Shown piece after piece: positions 58,922-64,000 of a stretch of 64,000 nt of DNA. A program made the translations under genes and the position numbers. Source of the DNA: Planctomycetota bacterium (GTDB lineage Bacteria; Planctomycetota; GCA-002687715; CAIWVZ01); assembly GCA_044222185.1 (NCBI GenBank), contig JBGANV010000010.1, forward strand, positions 96,001 to 160,000, written 5' to 3'. A model generated the notes under the pieces. The model was not told the DNA's origin. It did not search any database and was given only the letters and a program-made list of their open reading frames with translations. Position 1 is the first letter of the stretch. Each line of letters starts with the position of its first letter.

Positions 58922-59362
58922 TCAAGCGAGCGTCTTCAGGAGTGCGTCGGCCTGGCCGGCCGGGTCCTTCGTTTCGACCGCGGACTCGATCTTCCCGTCG
59001 GGTCCGACGACGTAGGTGATGCGTTTGGCGTAGGTTGCCGTCGCGTCATCGCAGGCTTCGTAGGCGAGTCCCACCTTGCGGTCCGGATCGCAAAGAAGCG
59101 GGTAGGCGAAGCTGAACTTCTCCGCGAAGGCCTTGTTCGCGGCGACGCCGTCGAACGAGACACCGAAGATCAGCACGTTCTTCGAGGTGAATTCGGGGGT
59201 TCTGTCACGGAACCCGCAGCCCTGGCGCGTTCAACCCGGGGTGTCGGCCTTGGGGTAGAACCAAAGCACGAATCGCCTGCCCTTCAGGTCGGCGAGGCGG
59301 ACCCGTTTTCCCGTGTGATCCTGAACGTCGAACGCGGGGGCGGTCGTACCCGGTTTCAGCAT
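58922..59362 (-). CDS. bcp: BCP/PrxQ peroxiredoxin, probable selenoprotein (TGA at codon 44)
   Basis: Manual translation MLKPGTTAPAFDVQDHTG...WFYPKADTPG(TGA)TRQGCGFRD...GVSFD...FAEKFSFAYPLLCD. AGGAG RBS. The TGA occupies the peroxidatic Cys position. Confidence 0.9.
59197..59215 (-). promoter_or_regulatory. Putative bacterial SECIS hairpin
   Basis: On the minus strand GGGTTC-CGTGACA-GAACCC. The loop starts 21 nt after the TGA and has G at loop position 2. Confidence 0.65.
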
Positions 59363-59469
59363 GGCGCCATCTCTCCTGTGACGTGTTCCAGCGGTCGATT
59401 GGGGGGCGCTGCTCTACGCCACGAAGCGTGCGCGTCGCAAGCATCCGGCGTCGCGCCCCTGAACTTCAA

Positions 59470-59538: not shown

Positions 59539-61161
59539 ATGATGGATCAGGACTTAGCCTCAATCGCCGAGGCTCGCGCGCTGCTTCGGCGCACCCGCCA
59601 GGCATTCAACCAGTACCGGTCGTTCGACCAGGCTCGGGTCGACCGCATCGTCTACGCGGCGGTCGAAGCCGGCTATCGGGCGTCTGAACGCCTCGCGCAG
59701 GTCGCCGTCGAGGAGACGGGCATCGGCCGTGTCGACGGCAAGACGGCGAAGAACCGCTTCGCGACGCGAGGACTCTGGGCCGCGATCCGCGAACTCCGAA
59801 CCTGCGGAATCCTGAACGAGGATTCCGAGCGAGGCGTCACCGAGGTGGCAGACCCGTTCGGGATCGTCGCCGCGATCATCCCCACGACGAACCCCACGTC
59901 GACCGCGATGTTCAAGGCTCTCATCTGCCTGAAGTCGCGTAATGGAATGGTGGCCTCGCCACACCCGCGGTCCGTTCGGTGCGTGAACGAATCCGTTCGC
60001 GTGATTCACGAGGCCGCCGTCGAGGCAGGCGCGCCCCGCGACATCGTCGCGTGCATGACGAACGTCAGTCTCGAGGGAACCCAGGCGCTCATGCGCCACG
60101 AAGAGACCGACCTCATCCTCGCCACGGGTGGCTCGGGGCTCGTACGGGAAGCCTATTCGTCCGGCAAGCCGGCGTTCGGCGTGGGCCCCGGGAACGTGCC
60201 CGTCTACGTGGACCGTTCCGCCGACATCGCCTATTCGGCGCGCTGCTTCGTCGAGAGTCAGACGTTCGACAACGGCACGATCTGTTCTTCCGAGCAGGCG
60301 ATCGTGTGCGACCGGCCCGTGAGCGACCGGCTCCTGGCAGAGCTTCGCGCACGAAAGTGTCACGTCTGCACTCCTGAAGAGGTCAAGCGGCTCGAAGCCA
60401 TCGCGTTGAAGGGCAAGACGATGAACCCCGACATCGTGGGTCTTCACGCGAACAAGGTCGCGGAAAAGGCCGGGTTCACCGTGCCCGGCGACACGACGGT
60501 GCTGATCGCCCCGACGTCCGGCGTCGGCTTCGCCCATCCGCTCTCACACGAGAAGCTCTGCCCCATGCTGGCCTTCTACGTCGTGGATGGTTGGGAGCAG
60601 GGCTGCCACCTCTGCCTGGACATCCTGGGATTCGGCGGATTGGGACACTCGATCGGCCTTCACTGCGAGGACGAGTCGATCATCCGGCGGTTTGCCCTGG
60701 AGAAGCCCGTCAACCGCATCATTCTGAACAGCCCCACGTCGCAGGGCGCCGTCGGGTTCACGACGCGACTGTTCCCGTCCATGACGCTCGGATGCGGGTC
60801 CTTCGGGGGCAACATCACGTCGGACAACATCGGCCCTCAGCACCTCTTGAACATCAAGCGGCTGGCGCGCGTTCGTCCCGAGTATCGCGACGGAACGATG
60901 ACCGCCGAGTTCCCGCACCTGCCTCCGACTGGCGCGGCGGACCCCGTGACGAGTCCCTGGGACCCCGCCGATCGATTGGTCTCGCGGCCGGAGCCCGACC
61001 CCGCCGCGCCTCCCCGGCCGGCCCTCGCGAATCCGGCTCGCCCCTTTTCGCGCGACGTGCTTGCGGGCATCATTTCCGGACATTTGCGGGAGCGGGGGAG
61101 TCAGTTGGAGGGACGGGTCGATGGTCGTGATCCGCCCCGAAAGGGTCACGGCGGATGTTGA
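59539..61161 (+). CDS. CoA-acylating aldehyde dehydrogenase (EutE/PduP-like) with C-terminal extension
   Basis: AVEETGIG, IPTTNPTST, LATGG.GLV, GVGPGN, FDNGTICSSEQ (catalytic Cys), EKLCP, SMTLGCG. Confidence 0.93.
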   Translation: MMDQDLASIAEARALLRRTRQAFNQYRSFDQARVDRIVYAAVEAGYRASERLAQVAVEETGIGRVDGKTAKNRFATRGLWAAIRELRTCGILNEDSERGVTEVADPFGIVAAIIPTTNPTSTAMFKALICLKSRNGMVASPHPRSVRCVNESVRVIHEAAVEAGAPRDIVACMTNVSLEGTQALMRHEETDLILATGGSGLVREAYSSGKPAFGVGPGNVPVYVDRSADIAYSARCFVESQTFDNGTICSSEQAIVCDRPVSDRLLAELRARKCHVCTPEEVKRLEAIALKGKTMNPDIVGLHANKVAEKAGFTVPGDTTVLIAPTSGVGFAHPLSHEKLCPMLAFYVVDGWEQGCHLCLDILGFGGLGHSIGLHCEDESIIRRFALEKPVNRIILNSPTSQGAVGFTTRLFPSMTLGCGSFGGNITSDNIGPQHLLNIKRLARVRPEYRDGTMTAEFPHLPPTGAADPVTSPWDPADRLVSRPEPDPAAPPRPALANPARPFSRDVLAGIISGHLRERGSQLEGRVDGRDPPRKGHGGC

Positions 61162-61204: not shown

Positions 61205-61498
61205 ATGAGCATGATTGCGCTTGGCATGGTCGAGACCCGCGGTCTCGTGGGTGCCGTCGAAGCCGCGGACGCCATGGTGAAGGCCGCCCAGGTCACGCTG
61301 ATCGGCAAGGAGAAGATCGGTGGCGGTTTCGTCACGGTGATGGTTCGCGGCGAGGTCGGAGCCGTGAAGGCGGCGACCGATGCGGGCGCAGCTGCCGCGA
61401 AGCGTGTCGGCGAGCTCGTTTCGGTCCACGTCATTCCCCGTCCGCACGACCAGGTCGAATCGATCCTTCCGTCCGCGCCGGCCCGCGACGAAGGCTGA
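61205..61498 (+). CDS. BMC hexamer shell protein (BMC-H)
   Basis: [36 protein letters not shown]. Confidence 0.98.
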
Positions 61499-61542: not shown

Positions 61543-62169
61543 ATGGCCGACATCGAACTCCGCACGTTCGTCTTCCTCGACAGCATGCAGCCGCAGTTCG
61601 CGTCGTTCGTAGGCACGACGTCGCGTGGCTATCTGCCGGTCGAATATCAAGCTGCCTTGTTCGTCGAGATCGCCCCCGGCATCGCGATCAACAAGGTGAC
61701 TGACGTCGCACTGAAGAAGAACGACGTGCAGCCCGGCGTCCAGGTCGTCGAGCGGGCCTATGGTCTGCTCGAGGTCCACGCCGACAGTCAAGCCGAGGTC
61801 ATCTCGGCCGGCGAGAACATCCTCCAATCGCTTGGACTCAAGCGCGAGGATCGTTTGAAGCCCAAGGTGATGTCGTCGCAGATCATCACCAACATCGATC
61901 CTTACCAGGCGCAGCTCATCAACCGCATTCGCTTCGGCAACATGATCCTCGGAGGGGACACGCTGTACATCCTCGAGGTTCATCCCGCTGGATACGCGAC
62001 GGTGGCTGCGAACGAAGCCGAGAAGGCTTCACCCATCAGCCTCATCGAGATGCAGATGTTCGGCGCCTACGGCCGCCTGTATCTCGGGGGGACCGAGGCT
62101 GAGATCGAGGAGGCGGCAGCCGCCGTCCTCCACGCCCTCGATTCGATCGACGGGCGTCCCAACAAGTGA
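61543..62169 (+). CDS. BMC tandem-domain shell protein, double-stacking type (BMC-Tdp, CcmP/CsoS1D-like)
   Basis: ELRTFVFLDSMQPQFA, VEIAPG, VVERAYGLLE, LEVHPAGYA..AANEAEK, GAYGRLYL. Confidence 0.92.
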   Translation: MADIELRTFVFLDSMQPQFASFVGTTSRGYLPVEYQAALFVEIAPGIAINKVTDVALKKNDVQPGVQVVERAYGLLEVHADSQAEVISAGENILQSLGLKREDRLKPKVMSSQIITNIDPYQAQLINRIRFGNMILGGDTLYILEVHPAGYATVAANEAEKASPISLIEMQMFGAYGRLYLGGTEAEIEEAAAAVLHALDSIDGRPNK

Positions 62170-62181
62170 AGGGACGAGAAC

Positions 62182-63705
62182 GTGTTTGTCGGAACAGTCA
62201 GATGTGAGATCGAAGTCGGAAAGGCCTCCCAGGCGTTCCGCGGCTTCCGGCTCCTCCTCGTGGAGCCCGAGCACAAGGTCGATTGGGATGGACCCGTGGT
62301 CGCGGTTGATACGGTGCAGGCCAACGTCGGCGACATGGTCGTCGTCGCGCTCGCACCATTCGGCACGGGCCTCAACATCCCCGCGGATCTTCCGGTCGAG
62401 GCCGCGACGGTCGCGATCGTGAAGTCACTGTCGGGTACGCCGGCCGCTGCGCCGGCCCAGCGTCACGGCACGCCTCCGCCCGCGGCGCCCGCCCGTTCGC
62501 CGGACGGACCGCCGCGTCCGGAGCGCGCACCGGACGCGCCCCGGGGTGAGCGCGAGCCCGCGTTGCCGAGCCACATTCGGGACCTGATGGAAACCGCTCG
62601 GCCCGCCGCGCCACGCGATGCGGACGAGGGCGGTGCGCGGTTCGCCGACGAGGGACCGGGTGGTCCCCGTCGTCGCCGCCGCCGTCGCGGAGGTCGTGGG
62701 GGTCGCGGCCACGAGGACGGGTTCGAAGGCGGGCCCGAGTCCGAGGGCCAGGACGACGTGGCGTTCGCCGAGCCCGCCGACGAGCCGCGGAGCGGCGACG
62801 TACGCGAGCCCGTGGATGCACCGCCGGCCGCATTGCCGCCGCGCGACGATCGCGGTCACGGTCGTCGTGACGACCGCAGGCCACGCGATGATCGCGGCCC
62901 TCGCGAAGACCGTCCGATGCGCGACGATCGCGGCCCGCGTGAAGATCGCCCCATGCGTGAGGATCGCCCGGCACGCGACGAACGCCCCATGCGTGACGAA
63001 CGCCCCATGCGTGACGAACGCCCCATGCGTGACGAACGCCCCATGCGTGACGAACGCCCCCCGCGTGACGAACGCCCCCCGCGTGACGAACGCCCCGCGC
63101 GTGAGGAACGCCCCGCGCGTGAGGAACGCCCCGCGCGTGAGGAACGCCCCGCGCGTGAGGAACGCCCCGCGCGTGAGGAGCGCGGCCCGCGCGACGATCG
63201 CCCCATGCGGGACGACCGTCCAGCGCGCGACGACCGTCATCAAAGGGACGATCGCACGCGGGATGAACCCCGTGGTCCGCGCGAGGATCGCCCGCAACGC
63301 GACGAGCGCGGACCTCGAGAAGACCGGGGCCCGCGCGGCGAGGATCGGCCCCGCCGTGACGACGGTCACCGCCATCACGGCGGACAAGATCGCGGCCCCC
63401 ATGGCGAACCCCGTCCGCCCCGCGAGCCTCGCGAGCCGCTGCGCCCCGAGCGTCGCGAGCCGGCGTCGCCGGTGAGCGAGGCGAAGGCCATCGAGGGTTT
63501 CGACGCGCCCGCCGAACGCAAGCCAGCTCGCCAGGAGCCGTCGGGCGATCGTGGTGCGCGCCGGCCTGCGGGCGAGTCTTCCGCCGTGGTGTGGGACGCG
63601 TCGCCCGGTCCCGTCGGCGGCTTCGAGATCGCCGAGGACGTCGCGCTGACGTCGACCTCCGGCATCAAACGCCCCGTGAAGCGTCGCGGAGGCCTGCGTA
63701 AGTGA
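62182..63705 (+). CDS. Divergent BMC pentamer (BMC-P, EutN/CcmL-like) fused to a ~420-aa disordered charged tail
   Basis: Residues 1-83 (MFVGTV...RLLLVEP...VVAVDTVQANVGDMVVV...PVEAATVAIV) follow the EutN/CcmL pattern. The rest is low-complexity P/R/D/E/G sequence. Confidence 0.8.
   Translation: MFVGTVRCEIEVGKASQAFRGFRLLLVEPEHKVDWDGPVVAVDTVQANVGDMVVVALAPFGTGLNIPADLPVEAATVAIVKSLSGTPAAAPAQRHGTPPPAAPARSPDGPPRPERAPDAPRGEREPALPSHIRDLMETARPAAPRDADEGGARFADEGPGGPRRRRRRRGGRGGRGHEDGFEGGPESEGQDDVAFAEPADEPRSGDVREPVDAPPAALPPRDDRGHGRRDDRRPRDDRGPREDRPMRDDRGPREDRPMREDRPARDERPMRDERPMRDERPMRDERPMRDERPPRDERPPRDERPAREERPAREERPAREERPAREERPAREERGPRDDRPMRDDRPARDDRHQRDDRTRDEPRGPREDRPQRDERGPREDRGPRGEDRPRRDDGHRHHGGQDRGPHGEPRPPREPREPLRPERREPASPVSEAKAIEGFDAPAERKPARQEPSGDRGARRPAGESSAVVWDASPGPVGGFEIAEDVALTSTSGIKRPVKRRGGLRK
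62866..63243 (+). repeat. In-frame 18-bp tandem repeat, 21 units encoding R-[DE]-[DE]-R-x-x
   Basis: Near-identical core 62974-63171 (CGTGA[CG]GAACGCCCC[ACG][TC]G x11) with degenerate flanking units. Confidence 0.95.
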
Positions 63706-64000
63706 GATCGGCGACGGGCAGCGGATCGAGCCCACTCGGCGCCGTCGAGTGGGACAGCGTGGCGCGCGGGATCCAATCCGCCGATGCCCTGCTGAAGGCC
63801 GCGCCCGTCACGCCCCTTCTCATGCGACCGATCACGCCTGGGCGCTACCTGGCGCTCTTCACCGGCGAGGTCGAGGCCGTGCGTGCGTCCGTGGCGCGCG
63901 CCCTCGAGACCGGTGGCGAAAGCGTGATCGACCACCTCGTCCTGCCGAATCCGCACTCCGGGTTGTGGCTCGCGCTCGGTGCCCGCGGGCAGGATGGCGC
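63702..64000 (+). CDS. BMC tandem-domain shell protein, PduT/BMC-T1-like (3' truncated by the window)
   Basis: Manual translation from a GTG overlapping the upstream TGA: LGAVEWDSVARGIQSADALLKAAPV..LLMRPITPGRYL..GEVEAVRASV...DHLVLPNPH..LW. Confidence 0.85.
   Translation, partial: MRSATGSGSSPLGAVEWDSVARGIQSADALLKAAPVTPLLMRPITPGRYLALFTGEVEAVRASVARALETGGESVIDHLVLPNPHSGLWLALGARGQDG

Follow-up and report, generated by a model that had tools for sequence, protein, structure and literature searches.

A bacterial microcompartment vertex protein with a long, predicted disordered tail and a conserved terminal motif in an order of Planctomycetota

Background

Pentameric shell proteins that continue into an intrinsically disordered region (IDR) have been described for archaeal microcompartments: the AMC-P2 fusions of Hodarchaeales (Asgard) co-purify with DNA and RNA, for which the IDR is required (2025 bioRxiv, PMC12747264), and the same preprint calls the feature 'not observed in BMCs' (PMC12747264), i.e. 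in bacterial microcompartments. Here we analyse a bacterial gene for a vertex protein (BMC-P) with such a tail. It lies in a stretch of 64,000 nucleotides (nt), in the following called the window, from a Planctomycetota bacterium (assembly GCA_044222185.1, contig JBGANV010000010.1, positions 96,001 to 160,000 of the forward strand). A first-pass annotation, made from the letters of the window, had proposed an in-frame fusion of a BMC-P domain and a disordered mixed-charge tail of ~420 amino acids (aa); the proposal is confirmed, and the tail of 423 aa is encoded within a shell operon.

Three further sets of observations are relevant to the comparison. Alpha-McdB combines a charged N-terminus, an invariant C-terminal tryptophan within V(I)WPD, low hydrophobicity, a biased composition and disorder (PMC8359340); the tryptophan of McdB, which has acidic neighbours, is needed for association with the shell (PMC11321042), McdBs form condensates in vitro (PMC8359340, PMC11321042) and orphan McdBs without McdA are known (PMC8359340). 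Among bacterial shell proteins, C-terminal extensions of up to 200 residues have been catalogued for BMC-H (Sutter et al. 2021, PMC8217296), and a C-terminal Strep tag on the BMC-P of H. ochraceum pulls down whole shells (terminus: PMC10853475; pull-down: PMC6056538). Finally, many loci have more BMC-P paralogs than the 12 vertices of a shell call for, and the reason for this surplus has been raised as a question (PMC8217296, PMC11585597).

Results

The vertex domain and its tail

The open reading frame (ORF) at 62182..63705 (+), stop codon included, starts with GTG and runs as a single open frame through 507 aa; the ORF list, Pfam, a profile search of PDB, AF2, Foldseek and a codon test together identify it as a tailed BMC-P with a disordered tail of 423 aa. 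Residues 1-84 (62182..62433, +) are a divergent BMC-P (EutN/CcmL) domain with the predicted OB-like fold of solved pentamer subunits. The match of residues 1-80 to PF03319 (EutN_CcmL) scored 30.8 bits (E 4.2e-07; curated cut-off 25), or 32.1 bits in the genome scan, and a profile of seven N-terminal domains retrieved the H. ochraceum shell BMC-P 5v74 as its top match in PDB (E 4e-07). In the AF2 model, which was built from a 19-sequence alignment, pLDDT is 71-87 over residues 1-60 and below 50 over residues 73-98 (the last strand). All top Foldseek matches of this model in PDB were BMC-P pentamers (CcmL 4jvz, GrpN 4i7a, 5v74, EutN and CsoS4), with a target-normalised TM of 0.5-0.7 and a best E of 8e-04 for CcmL 4jvz. 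Both the PF03319 match and the likeness to pentamers, which the first-pass annotation had proposed to look for, were therefore found, and the divergence of the domain is apparent from its score, which compares with 77-102 bits for the three other BMC-Ps of the genome.

The tail has a charged fraction of 0.48 and a net charge of +3 (+0.007 per residue); Arg makes up 23%, Pro 17%, hydrophobic residues 8% and Lys 1%. It is predicted to be disordered, pLDDT being below 50 for 383 of the 507 residues of the protein. The elements that had been listed for it (Pro-rich linker, patch, acidic stretch, hexapeptides and basic C-terminus) are all present. It begins with a Pro/Ala-rich linker (residues 85-128; 62434..62565, +), apparent from the sequence and from AF2 means of 38-55 for 10-residue blocks over residues 81-130. 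The linker is followed by a short helix motif P-S-H-I-R-D-L-M-E-T-A (62566..62604, +), found in the AF2 model and in relatives: residues 130-138 form the only helix of the tail in the model (block mean pLDDT 64 for residues 131-140), and the corresponding pattern P.H[IV]R.[IL][IM] is confined to the closest family, where it was seen in L006/L007 and in fragment P0022. Next come the Arg/RGG patch PRRRRRRRGGRGGRGH (residues 162-177; 62665..62712, +; sequence and charge scan), of which PRRRRRRRGGRGGRG occupies residues 162-176 and in which the best 12-residue stretch has a net charge of +8, with a similar patch in fragment P0022, and an acidic stretch (residues 178-220; 62713..62841, +) that was delimited from the sequence and a sliding charge map.

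The longest element is an array of 22 in-register R-[DE]-[DE]-R-x-x hexapeptides (residues 229-360; 62866..63261, +), recognised in the sequence and by Tandem Repeats Finder (18-nt period, 15.2 copies, 88% matches, 62936-63209). Three extra units lie at 63280-63333 and the pattern has 26 matches in total, so that the repeat described by the first-pass annotation stands and its count of 21 does not. Two four-unit blocks are identical at the DNA level, which suggests that part of the array expanded recently. Within the hexapeptide block the charges are very well mixed (the patterning parameter kappa is 0.003, against 0.115 +/- 0.035 in shuffles, and 0.095 for the whole tail), and such a block would be expected to behave as a swollen, non-sticky spacer. 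As a rough estimate, the contour length would be near 150 nm and the coil size 15-20 nm.

A mixed region separates the array from the C-terminal end of the protein, which reads ...SAVVWDAS...KRPVKRRGGLRK. It contains a W-acidic short linear motif S-A-V-V-W-D-A around W471 (63580..63600, +), defined by ortholog alignment and pattern counts, and a polybasic C-terminal tip KRPVKRRGGLRK (63667..63702, +), defined by ortholog comparison. Of the 45,997 open frames of 80 aa or more that the genome contains, a single one combines the motif with the tip. Searches with Pfam on six ortholog tails (E up to 1) and with NCBIfam on the window protein recognised no family in the tails.

Integrity of the gene and its reading frame

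As the local GC content is 74% and long shadow ORFs are present on both strands, the coding frame was checked by four lines of evidence. For the ortholog pair L025/L026, the differing codons of the tail comprise 75 synonymous and 57 non-synonymous ones in the annotated frame, against 12:122 and 7:123 in the two other frames of the same strand, which together with this one pair make up the scope of the test. The C-terminal motif stays in frame across every complete ortholog. The tailed gene begins 12 nt past the preceding BMC-T gene and its stop overlaps the start of the following BMC-T gene by 4 nt; in the relatives the next gene starts at most 5 nt from the stop of the tail in six of the seven loci, regardless of tail length. 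The reverse-strand ORF at 62425..63735 (436 aa) was taken as a shadow frame of the repeat.

Independent coverage came from Logan contigs of three other short-read DNA runs (X2, X5 and X7). A contig of 828 nt from X2, a run of a different study, covers 62014-62841 with three substitutions and no gaps, and so crosses the junction of domain and tail without the stop codon or misassembly that the first-pass annotation had considered there. Further independent contigs align over 63233-63468 and 63575-64000; the core of the repeat (62965-63177) is without cover in the contigs of the three runs, and its copy number is consequently that of the present assembly alone. An RNA-library run (X20) gave one identical contig of 178 nt at 63238-63412 and one partial contig, which are no proof of transcription and were not used as evidence of expression. 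At the level of sequence these data confirm an intact gene, not an artefact, with selection acting on its reading frame.

What the tails of relatives keep and what varies

Among the orthologs, the sequence of the tail, its length (about 95-423 aa) and its charge patterning vary freely. Kappa is 0.04 in the nearest genus and 0.04-0.10 in the window protein and its family, below shuffles, and it reaches 0.25-0.39 in several orthologs, 3 to 6 standard deviations above shuffles, i.e. with blocky charges; conserved charge patterning as a trait was ruled out by this spread. The 19 tails of the close family have a charged fraction of 0.38-0.55 and 4-10% hydrophobic residues, with R/P/D/E/G/A dominant, and most of them are close to neutrality, with a net charge that ranges from -0.03 to +0.09 per residue (some K-rich orthologs carry +11 to +14 in total). 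Their types range from the RDERP-type polyampholyte over G/R/E-rich tails to K/A/P-rich repeats such as AAKKKPAAKKAAKK, AAKKKPAAKK or (KAAPA)n, a composition that is typical of DNA-binding tails. The conservation of composition that the first-pass annotation had suggested examining was consequently not observed, neither for composition nor for patterning (kappa 0.04-0.39); a W-acidic motif and a polybasic element are what is conserved.

The pattern [FILMV][IV]W[DE] is present in 19/19 complete close-family sequences and in L040, and the same 19 sequences and L040 end in a tip of the type K..RRR[RK]. In alignment A2, W471 and R502 are the only two invariant columns of the tail. The five tails of a more distant family all carry the variant [IVF]W[GK][DE]; their Lys patch is internal, and their end is acidic and lacks the poly-Arg tip. 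From the C-terminal end the Trp is separated by 12-36 residues in close-family tails and by 9-11 in those of the distant family. Every complete tail thereby combines one W-acidic motif with at least one polybasic element. An additional internal basic patch (Arg/RGG or Lys) was found in 16 of the 24 tails and, since eight lack it, was dropped as a universal trait. A folded anchor, a freely drifting disordered linker and a short conserved end suggest a tether that presents a docking motif, rather than a bulk property of the tail such as phase separation.

In the distant-family tails (L038:9732-10274, L041:8650-9195, L042:9361-10074 and L039) a second short motif, [DE].(.)DLF, separates the Lys patch from the acidic region, and these tails terminate in [FI][DE][DA]V[DE].[IVF]W[GK][DE] followed by acidic residues.

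Distribution of the tailed BMC-P

The order to which the window belongs has 23 species genomes in the collection. The tailed BMC-P was inspected in 17 of these (14 complete, three cut by contig ends) and an eighteenth, G018, gave a match. Of the remaining five, two are without any PF03319 match and three have only the triplet of untailed BMC-Ps described below, with the BMC-T of the operon not found; these genomes are 76-97% complete. No operon lacking the tailed BMC-P was seen among the order genomes examined, and most of them show a '3+1' pattern of a BMC-P triplet plus the tailed form. The gene order AldDh > BMC-H > BMC-T > tailed BMC-P > BMC-T (AldDh, aldehyde dehydrogenase) is kept in 11 of 12 loci; the twelfth, L028, begins inside the operon at the BMC-T gene. 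Outside the order, the syntenic operons of G032 and G257 encode untailed BMC-Ps of 98 and 96 aa, respectively, and that of G026 a short form of 117 aa.

A search of a representative library of 1.84 billion proteins with the N-domain profile yielded 12 matches below 1e-30, and ordinary BMC-Ps of 80-140 aa appeared only from about 1e-07 onwards. Ten of the 14 best representatives are complete proteins of 203-355 aa, all with the motif; P0009 and P0015 match fragments at contig ends, P0005 (85 aa) is labelled 'partial' by NCBI and P0002 (130 aa) lies on a contig of 813 nt. Close homologs are hence long, not uniformly short as would have spoken against the first-pass annotation, and the 507 aa of the window protein are the longest form seen. 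These searches by hidden Markov model and by genome superseded an initial homolog search (residues 1-90 against proteins of 278-888 aa, limited by a word index), which had given one match, P0001. Of 401 genomes sampled from the phylum, 12 were matched by the close-family profile, and all but one of the 12 belong to this order; because the profile misses the more distant tailed family, the count is no census of tails.

A search for longer BMC-Ps gave 19 matches among 8000 scored candidates; 18 of them were retrieved, 14 as one set. No second family of BMC-Ps with a disordered tail came to light within the range of this search, which is limited by its word index and has a lower bound of 192 aa that leaves the archaeal fusions outside. 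P0100 and P0105 belong to the present clade, and P0099, P0101 and P0104 are BMC-Ps joined to other sequence, possibly by mis-called frames. In the remaining nine members of the set (P0090-P0098), which are public gene calls of 193-360 aa, two or three BMC-P-like domains follow each other in tandem, and in some of them Arg-rich stretches between the domains resemble a frame-shifted reading of adjacent triplet genes. It was also noticed that the metagenome-assembled genomes of L025 and L029 are labelled 'Candidatus Kuenenia stuttgartiensis' and 'Deltaproteobacteria bacterium', which is odd in view of the Planctomycetota labels of their relatives and may reflect problems of binning or naming.

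The main operon, a satellite locus and the type of metabolosome

The operon encodes, in this order, an acylating AldDh, a BMC-H, a CcmP-like BMC-T, the tailed BMC-P, a tandem BMC-T and a protein of 98 aa; its BMC-H and BMC-T genes are the only PF00936 genes in the genome of 7.08 Mb. The AldDh gene (59539..61161, +) was identified by PF00171 and TIGR02518 (EutH_ACDH, 549 bits); its frame opens at 59383, and the ATG at 59539 is the probable start, fitting the ortholog lengths of 539-569 aa. The BMC-H hexamer protein (61205..61498, +; 97 aa; PF00936, 100.8 bits) is 82-90% identical to its orthologs. The CcmP-like tandem BMC-T (61543..62169, +; 208 aa) matches NF053796 (CcmP) with 290 bits, below the equivalog cut-off of 340, and PF00936 weakly, and shows 65-81% identity across all syntenic loci. 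The tandem-domain BMC-T (200 aa) with two PF00936 domains (139 bits) starts at 63702 (+) and runs to the end of the window at 64000 and past it to genome position C10:160304.

Additional observations were made on the genes of the operon and next to it. The C-terminal extension of the AldDh (about 60990-61161) has a conserved W motif upstream of an amphipathic, encapsulation-peptide-like helix; this motif reads [SRK]PW[DEGP] in seven close-family loci and LW[QV]P in four distant-family loci, and so shifts between the families in parallel with the Trp motif of the tail. The 98-aa protein that closes the operon (C10:160339-160635, L036:6339-6635, beyond the end of the window) is kept in the two closest families (eight sequences, 19 invariant columns). 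Pfam and NCBIfam gave no match for it and a protein atlas no usable one, and in the other two families (five loci, L038-L042) its profile matched nothing. The AF2 model is a small beta-barrel (pLDDT 72), for which Foldseek returned weak matches, mostly to PilZ domains, with E values that all exceed 0.001 (best 0.011). The idea that it is a co-varying partner of the poly-Arg tip was dropped, because L040 has the tip and no match to the profile. Just upstream of the operon lies an 84-aa peroxiredoxin-like ORF fragment (58922-59362, -).

Three ordinary, untailed BMC-Ps are encoded in a satellite locus on the minus strand of contig C1 (C1:1527939-1532957; L037:8939-13957), which contains no BMC-H or BMC-T. 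Its gene order is a BFN nuclease-domain gene, BMC-P, RpiB, two BMC-Ps, DeoC and a PNP/UDP phosphorylase (PNP_UDP_1); RpiB has an N-terminal extension of 140 aa (domain from residue 143) and DeoC is extended too (domain from residue 77). Sugar-phosphate-utilising (SPU) metabolosomes have been defined by DERA (PF01791) and RPI (PF02502) with N-terminal extensions, an acylating AldDh and a BMC-P triplet (PMC11585597, PMC8217296). With DeoC, RpiB and the BMC-P triplet in the satellite locus and the AldDh in the main operon, the organelle fits the published definition and is an SPU-type metabolosome with a split locus, its signature enzymes lying in the satellite. The tailed protein is a fourth BMC-P beside the untailed triplet. 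The figure of up to 60 tails per shell, given in the first-pass annotation, therefore holds as an upper bound; as the three untailed BMC-P genes are present in the same genome, the tailed form may occupy only some of the vertices.

The genome has three matches to PF13614 (ParA-type ATPases), none of them near the main operon or the satellite locus, and no ParA-like gene was present in the loci (16-20 kb) of five relatives. By reading, the three may be named Soj-like, Mrp-like and orphan ParA-like. The orphan is a protein of 376 aa with the Walker A sequence NHKGGVSKTT (C1:1073251-1074381, -); it was rejected as a conserved McdA partner, being present in 4 of the 41 genomes searched and in none of the four relatives of the same family.

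Discussion

A possible tether and its alternatives

The reading that we put forward, at somewhat less than an even chance, is that the tail reaches outward and tethers the organelle to nucleic acid, and that its W motif is a docking site for a protein. Residues 1-84 would form the pentamer that plugs the vertices of the shell, and the C-terminus would emerge on the outside and run into the disordered tail; this outward orientation is probable by analogy, because the C-terminal tag on the H. ochraceum BMC-P captures intact shells. Most of the tail would then be an RDERPx spacer, the length of which may drift by repeat slippage, and the functional parts would be the Arg/RGG patch and the bipartite end, i.e. 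the W-acidic motif and the polybasic tip that follows it. The ligand of the polybasic elements may be nucleic acid, in the form of the nucleoid or of DNA/RNA that would feed the nucleoside/deoxyribose catabolism of the organelle, and the W-acidic motif could dock a protein surface, possibly that of the shell itself as in McdB. Anchoring, spacing and inheritance of the organelle might in this manner do without a dedicated ParA ATPase. Tethering to RNA or the nucleoid and positioning were, next to condensation, also among the roles that the first-pass annotation had suggested as possible. Nucleic acid would be the most likely ligand of the basic elements in view of the K/A/P-rich and RGG-like compositions, of the AMC-P2 fusions that co-purify DNA/RNA in an IDR-dependent manner, and of the SPU type that both compartments share, with its context of nucleoside/deoxyribose catabolism. 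Several observations weigh against the proposal: the tail of the window protein is net neutral, unlike the net-positive archaeal IDRs; the Trp-acidic motif, the most conserved element, is not explained by binding of nucleic acid; the poly-Arg tip is absent from the distant family, and an internal basic patch from a third of the tails; and the orientation is borrowed from a different BMC-P, and with three untailed paralogs in the genome the tailed form may or may not be built into shells. A bolder form of the proposal, which we regard as speculative and doubtful, sees the protein as a McdB-like adaptor fused to a BMC-P, by which the metabolosome hitch-hikes on, or fishes for, nucleic acid without a ParA, in convergence with the Asgard SPU compartments, which likewise catabolise deoxyribose; if true, it would link the surface chemistry of an organelle to DNA as anchor or as substrate.

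The resemblance to McdB also allows an active version, in which the tail of a shell-fused adaptor stimulates a ParA-type ATPase on the nucleoid and the organelles are spaced by a Brownian ratchet. The tails agree with McdB in their disorder, their 4-10% hydrophobic residues, their biased composition and an invariant W between I/V and D/E; those of the distant family even have the McdB order, with the basic patch first and the W-acidic end last, and McdBs that lack a McdA are known as orphans (PMC8359340). Still, the likeness amounts to a motif of 3-4 residues, which in the close family lies 12-36 residues from the end and not within the last five, and a protein that itself belongs to the shell would have no need of a shell-binding W. 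Because no ParA-type gene lies near the loci or is co-conserved with them, the three PF13614 matches and the sparse orphan included, we rank this active mechanism below passive tethering and consider it rather improbable. Of similarly low probability is a role in linking shells to each other, where the W motif would bind hexamers or trimers of neighbouring shells, or blocks of opposite charge would associate, so that the organelles cluster or condense. Up to five tails per vertex would provide multivalency, the McdB motif does bind shells and McdBs do condense in vitro (PMC11321042, PMC8359340), and some orthologs have blocky charge patterns; the tail of the window protein is well mixed, however, and should be a poor self-associator, and the motif is at most a putative ligand of shell proteins. 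A complex prediction with three BMC-H copies and the last 54 residues of the tail (given as alignments, without controls) scored 0.00 and counts neither way.

If the tails were instead an entropic or electrostatic brush, i.e. steric bristles that prevent aggregation of the organelles among themselves or with other components of the cell, with a conserved end that is incidental or serves assembly, then their charge fraction of 0.38-0.55, near-zero net charge and scarcity of hydrophobics throughout the 19 close-family tails would be expected, as would charges that are mixed better than in shuffles (kappa 0.04-0.10 for the window protein and its family), the free variation in length and the recent expansion of the repeat. 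A brush requires no specific end, yet the W-acidic motif and the polybasic element are the only conserved parts, and the blocky orthologs (kappa 0.25-0.39) would favour stickiness over repulsion; we judge this explanation unlikely. A lumenal scaffold, in which the tail organises cargo inside the shell like CsoS2 or an encapsulation peptide, seems very improbable: the short helix at residues 130-138 in the closest family and the conserved W motif beside an encapsulation-peptide-like helix in the AldDh extension would agree with it, but the helix is not kept beyond one family, the C-terminal tags on the H. ochraceum BMC-P are reachable from outside (PMC10853475, PMC6056538), and by our estimate sixty tails of 46 kDa would crowd a small lumen. 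That the tail is an artefact, either because the repeat was misassembled or because a frame stays open by chance after an ordinary BMC-P of 85 aa, is hardly credible. The uncovered core of the repeat (62965-63177) and the shadow ORFs on both strands at 74% GC would leave room for it; against it stand the gapless 828-nt contig across the junction, the tails with an in-frame conserved end in every complete ortholog, the excess of synonymous changes in the annotated frame only, and the start of the next gene within 5 nt of the stop.

To our knowledge, the positioning, spacing and inheritance of non-carboxysomal microcompartments are largely unknown. The fourth paralog described here is set apart by its conserved tail, which probably faces outward, and by a short motif, and it offers a mutable handle (W471, the basic tip and the length of the tail) for tests of tethering. 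The tolerance of a vertex for a natural appendage of 46 kDa would in addition be useful for shell engineering and surface display.

Comparison with known systems

Canonical BMC-Ps (EutN, CcmL, CsoS4 and 5v74) share the domain of the window protein and are likewise encoded in shell operons, but they have about 80-110 aa and no tail. The extensions of BMC-H are similarly long terminal additions on the outward face, but they belong to a hexamer and not to a pentamer (PMC8217296); the main text of that catalog mentions long extensions for BMC-H only and none for BMC-P, and its supplementary data may list such. Our full-text searches of the literature likewise retrieved no bacterial BMC-P that is described as carrying a long disordered tail, supplementary tables, which may list some, being outside their scope.

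With McdB the tails have in common the disorder, low hydrophobicity, biased and repetitive composition, variable length, an invariant Trp preceded by I/V and with acidic neighbours, a basic region and the association with a microcompartment. McdB differs in that it is free-standing, needs its Trp to reach the shell and is usually encoded beside mcdA, whereas the tail is fused to a shell protein with no ParA nearby or co-conserved; moreover the motif of the tail is VW[DE] and not VWPD, and it is not located at the very end as in alpha-McdB. More general parallels are PhaM, the PAKKA tail of which links polyhydroxybutyrate (PHB) granules to the nucleoid, and FtsZ, which has a variable disordered linker and a conserved C-terminal peptide. 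As in the tailed BMC-P, a globular part is joined through a variable, disordered linker to a short conserved element for docking, and K/A/P-rich DNA-binding repeats resemble those of some of the present orthologs; the proteins and their cargos are unrelated and the likeness is one of analogy only.

The first-pass annotation knew of no described BMC-P of this architecture, which holds for bacteria in the literature searched and does not hold for archaea, where pentamer-IDR fusions that bind DNA/RNA exist (PMC12747264); that preprint was the only paper on such fusions that the searches retrieved. The likeness to these AMC-P2 proteins comprises the fusion of a pentamer protein and an IDR, an SPU-type compartment (DERA, AldDh), the presence of untailed pentamer paralogs and the basic residues (PMC12747264). 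The differences are the archaeal host and the IDRs themselves, which have 36-137 aa and are K/R-rich and net positive (PMC12747264), against about 95-423 aa and mostly near-neutral tails here; with +3 over 423 residues and 1% Lys, the tail of the window protein is not of the K/R-rich, net-positive kind. The W-acidic motif and the polybasic tip of the present proteins go unmentioned for AMC-P2 in the available text of the preprint (PMC12747264), a comparison made by description and not with the AMC-P2 sequences. The AMC-P2 fusions are accordingly the closest precedent, and the Planctomycetota clade is a bacterial counter-example to the 'not observed in BMCs' of that preprint (PMC12747264): pentamer-IDR fusions do exist in bacteria. 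Against the literature searched, the clade appears to be new as a bacterial group of tailed vertex proteins that extends through an order and is marked by its own composition and a defined motif at the terminus.

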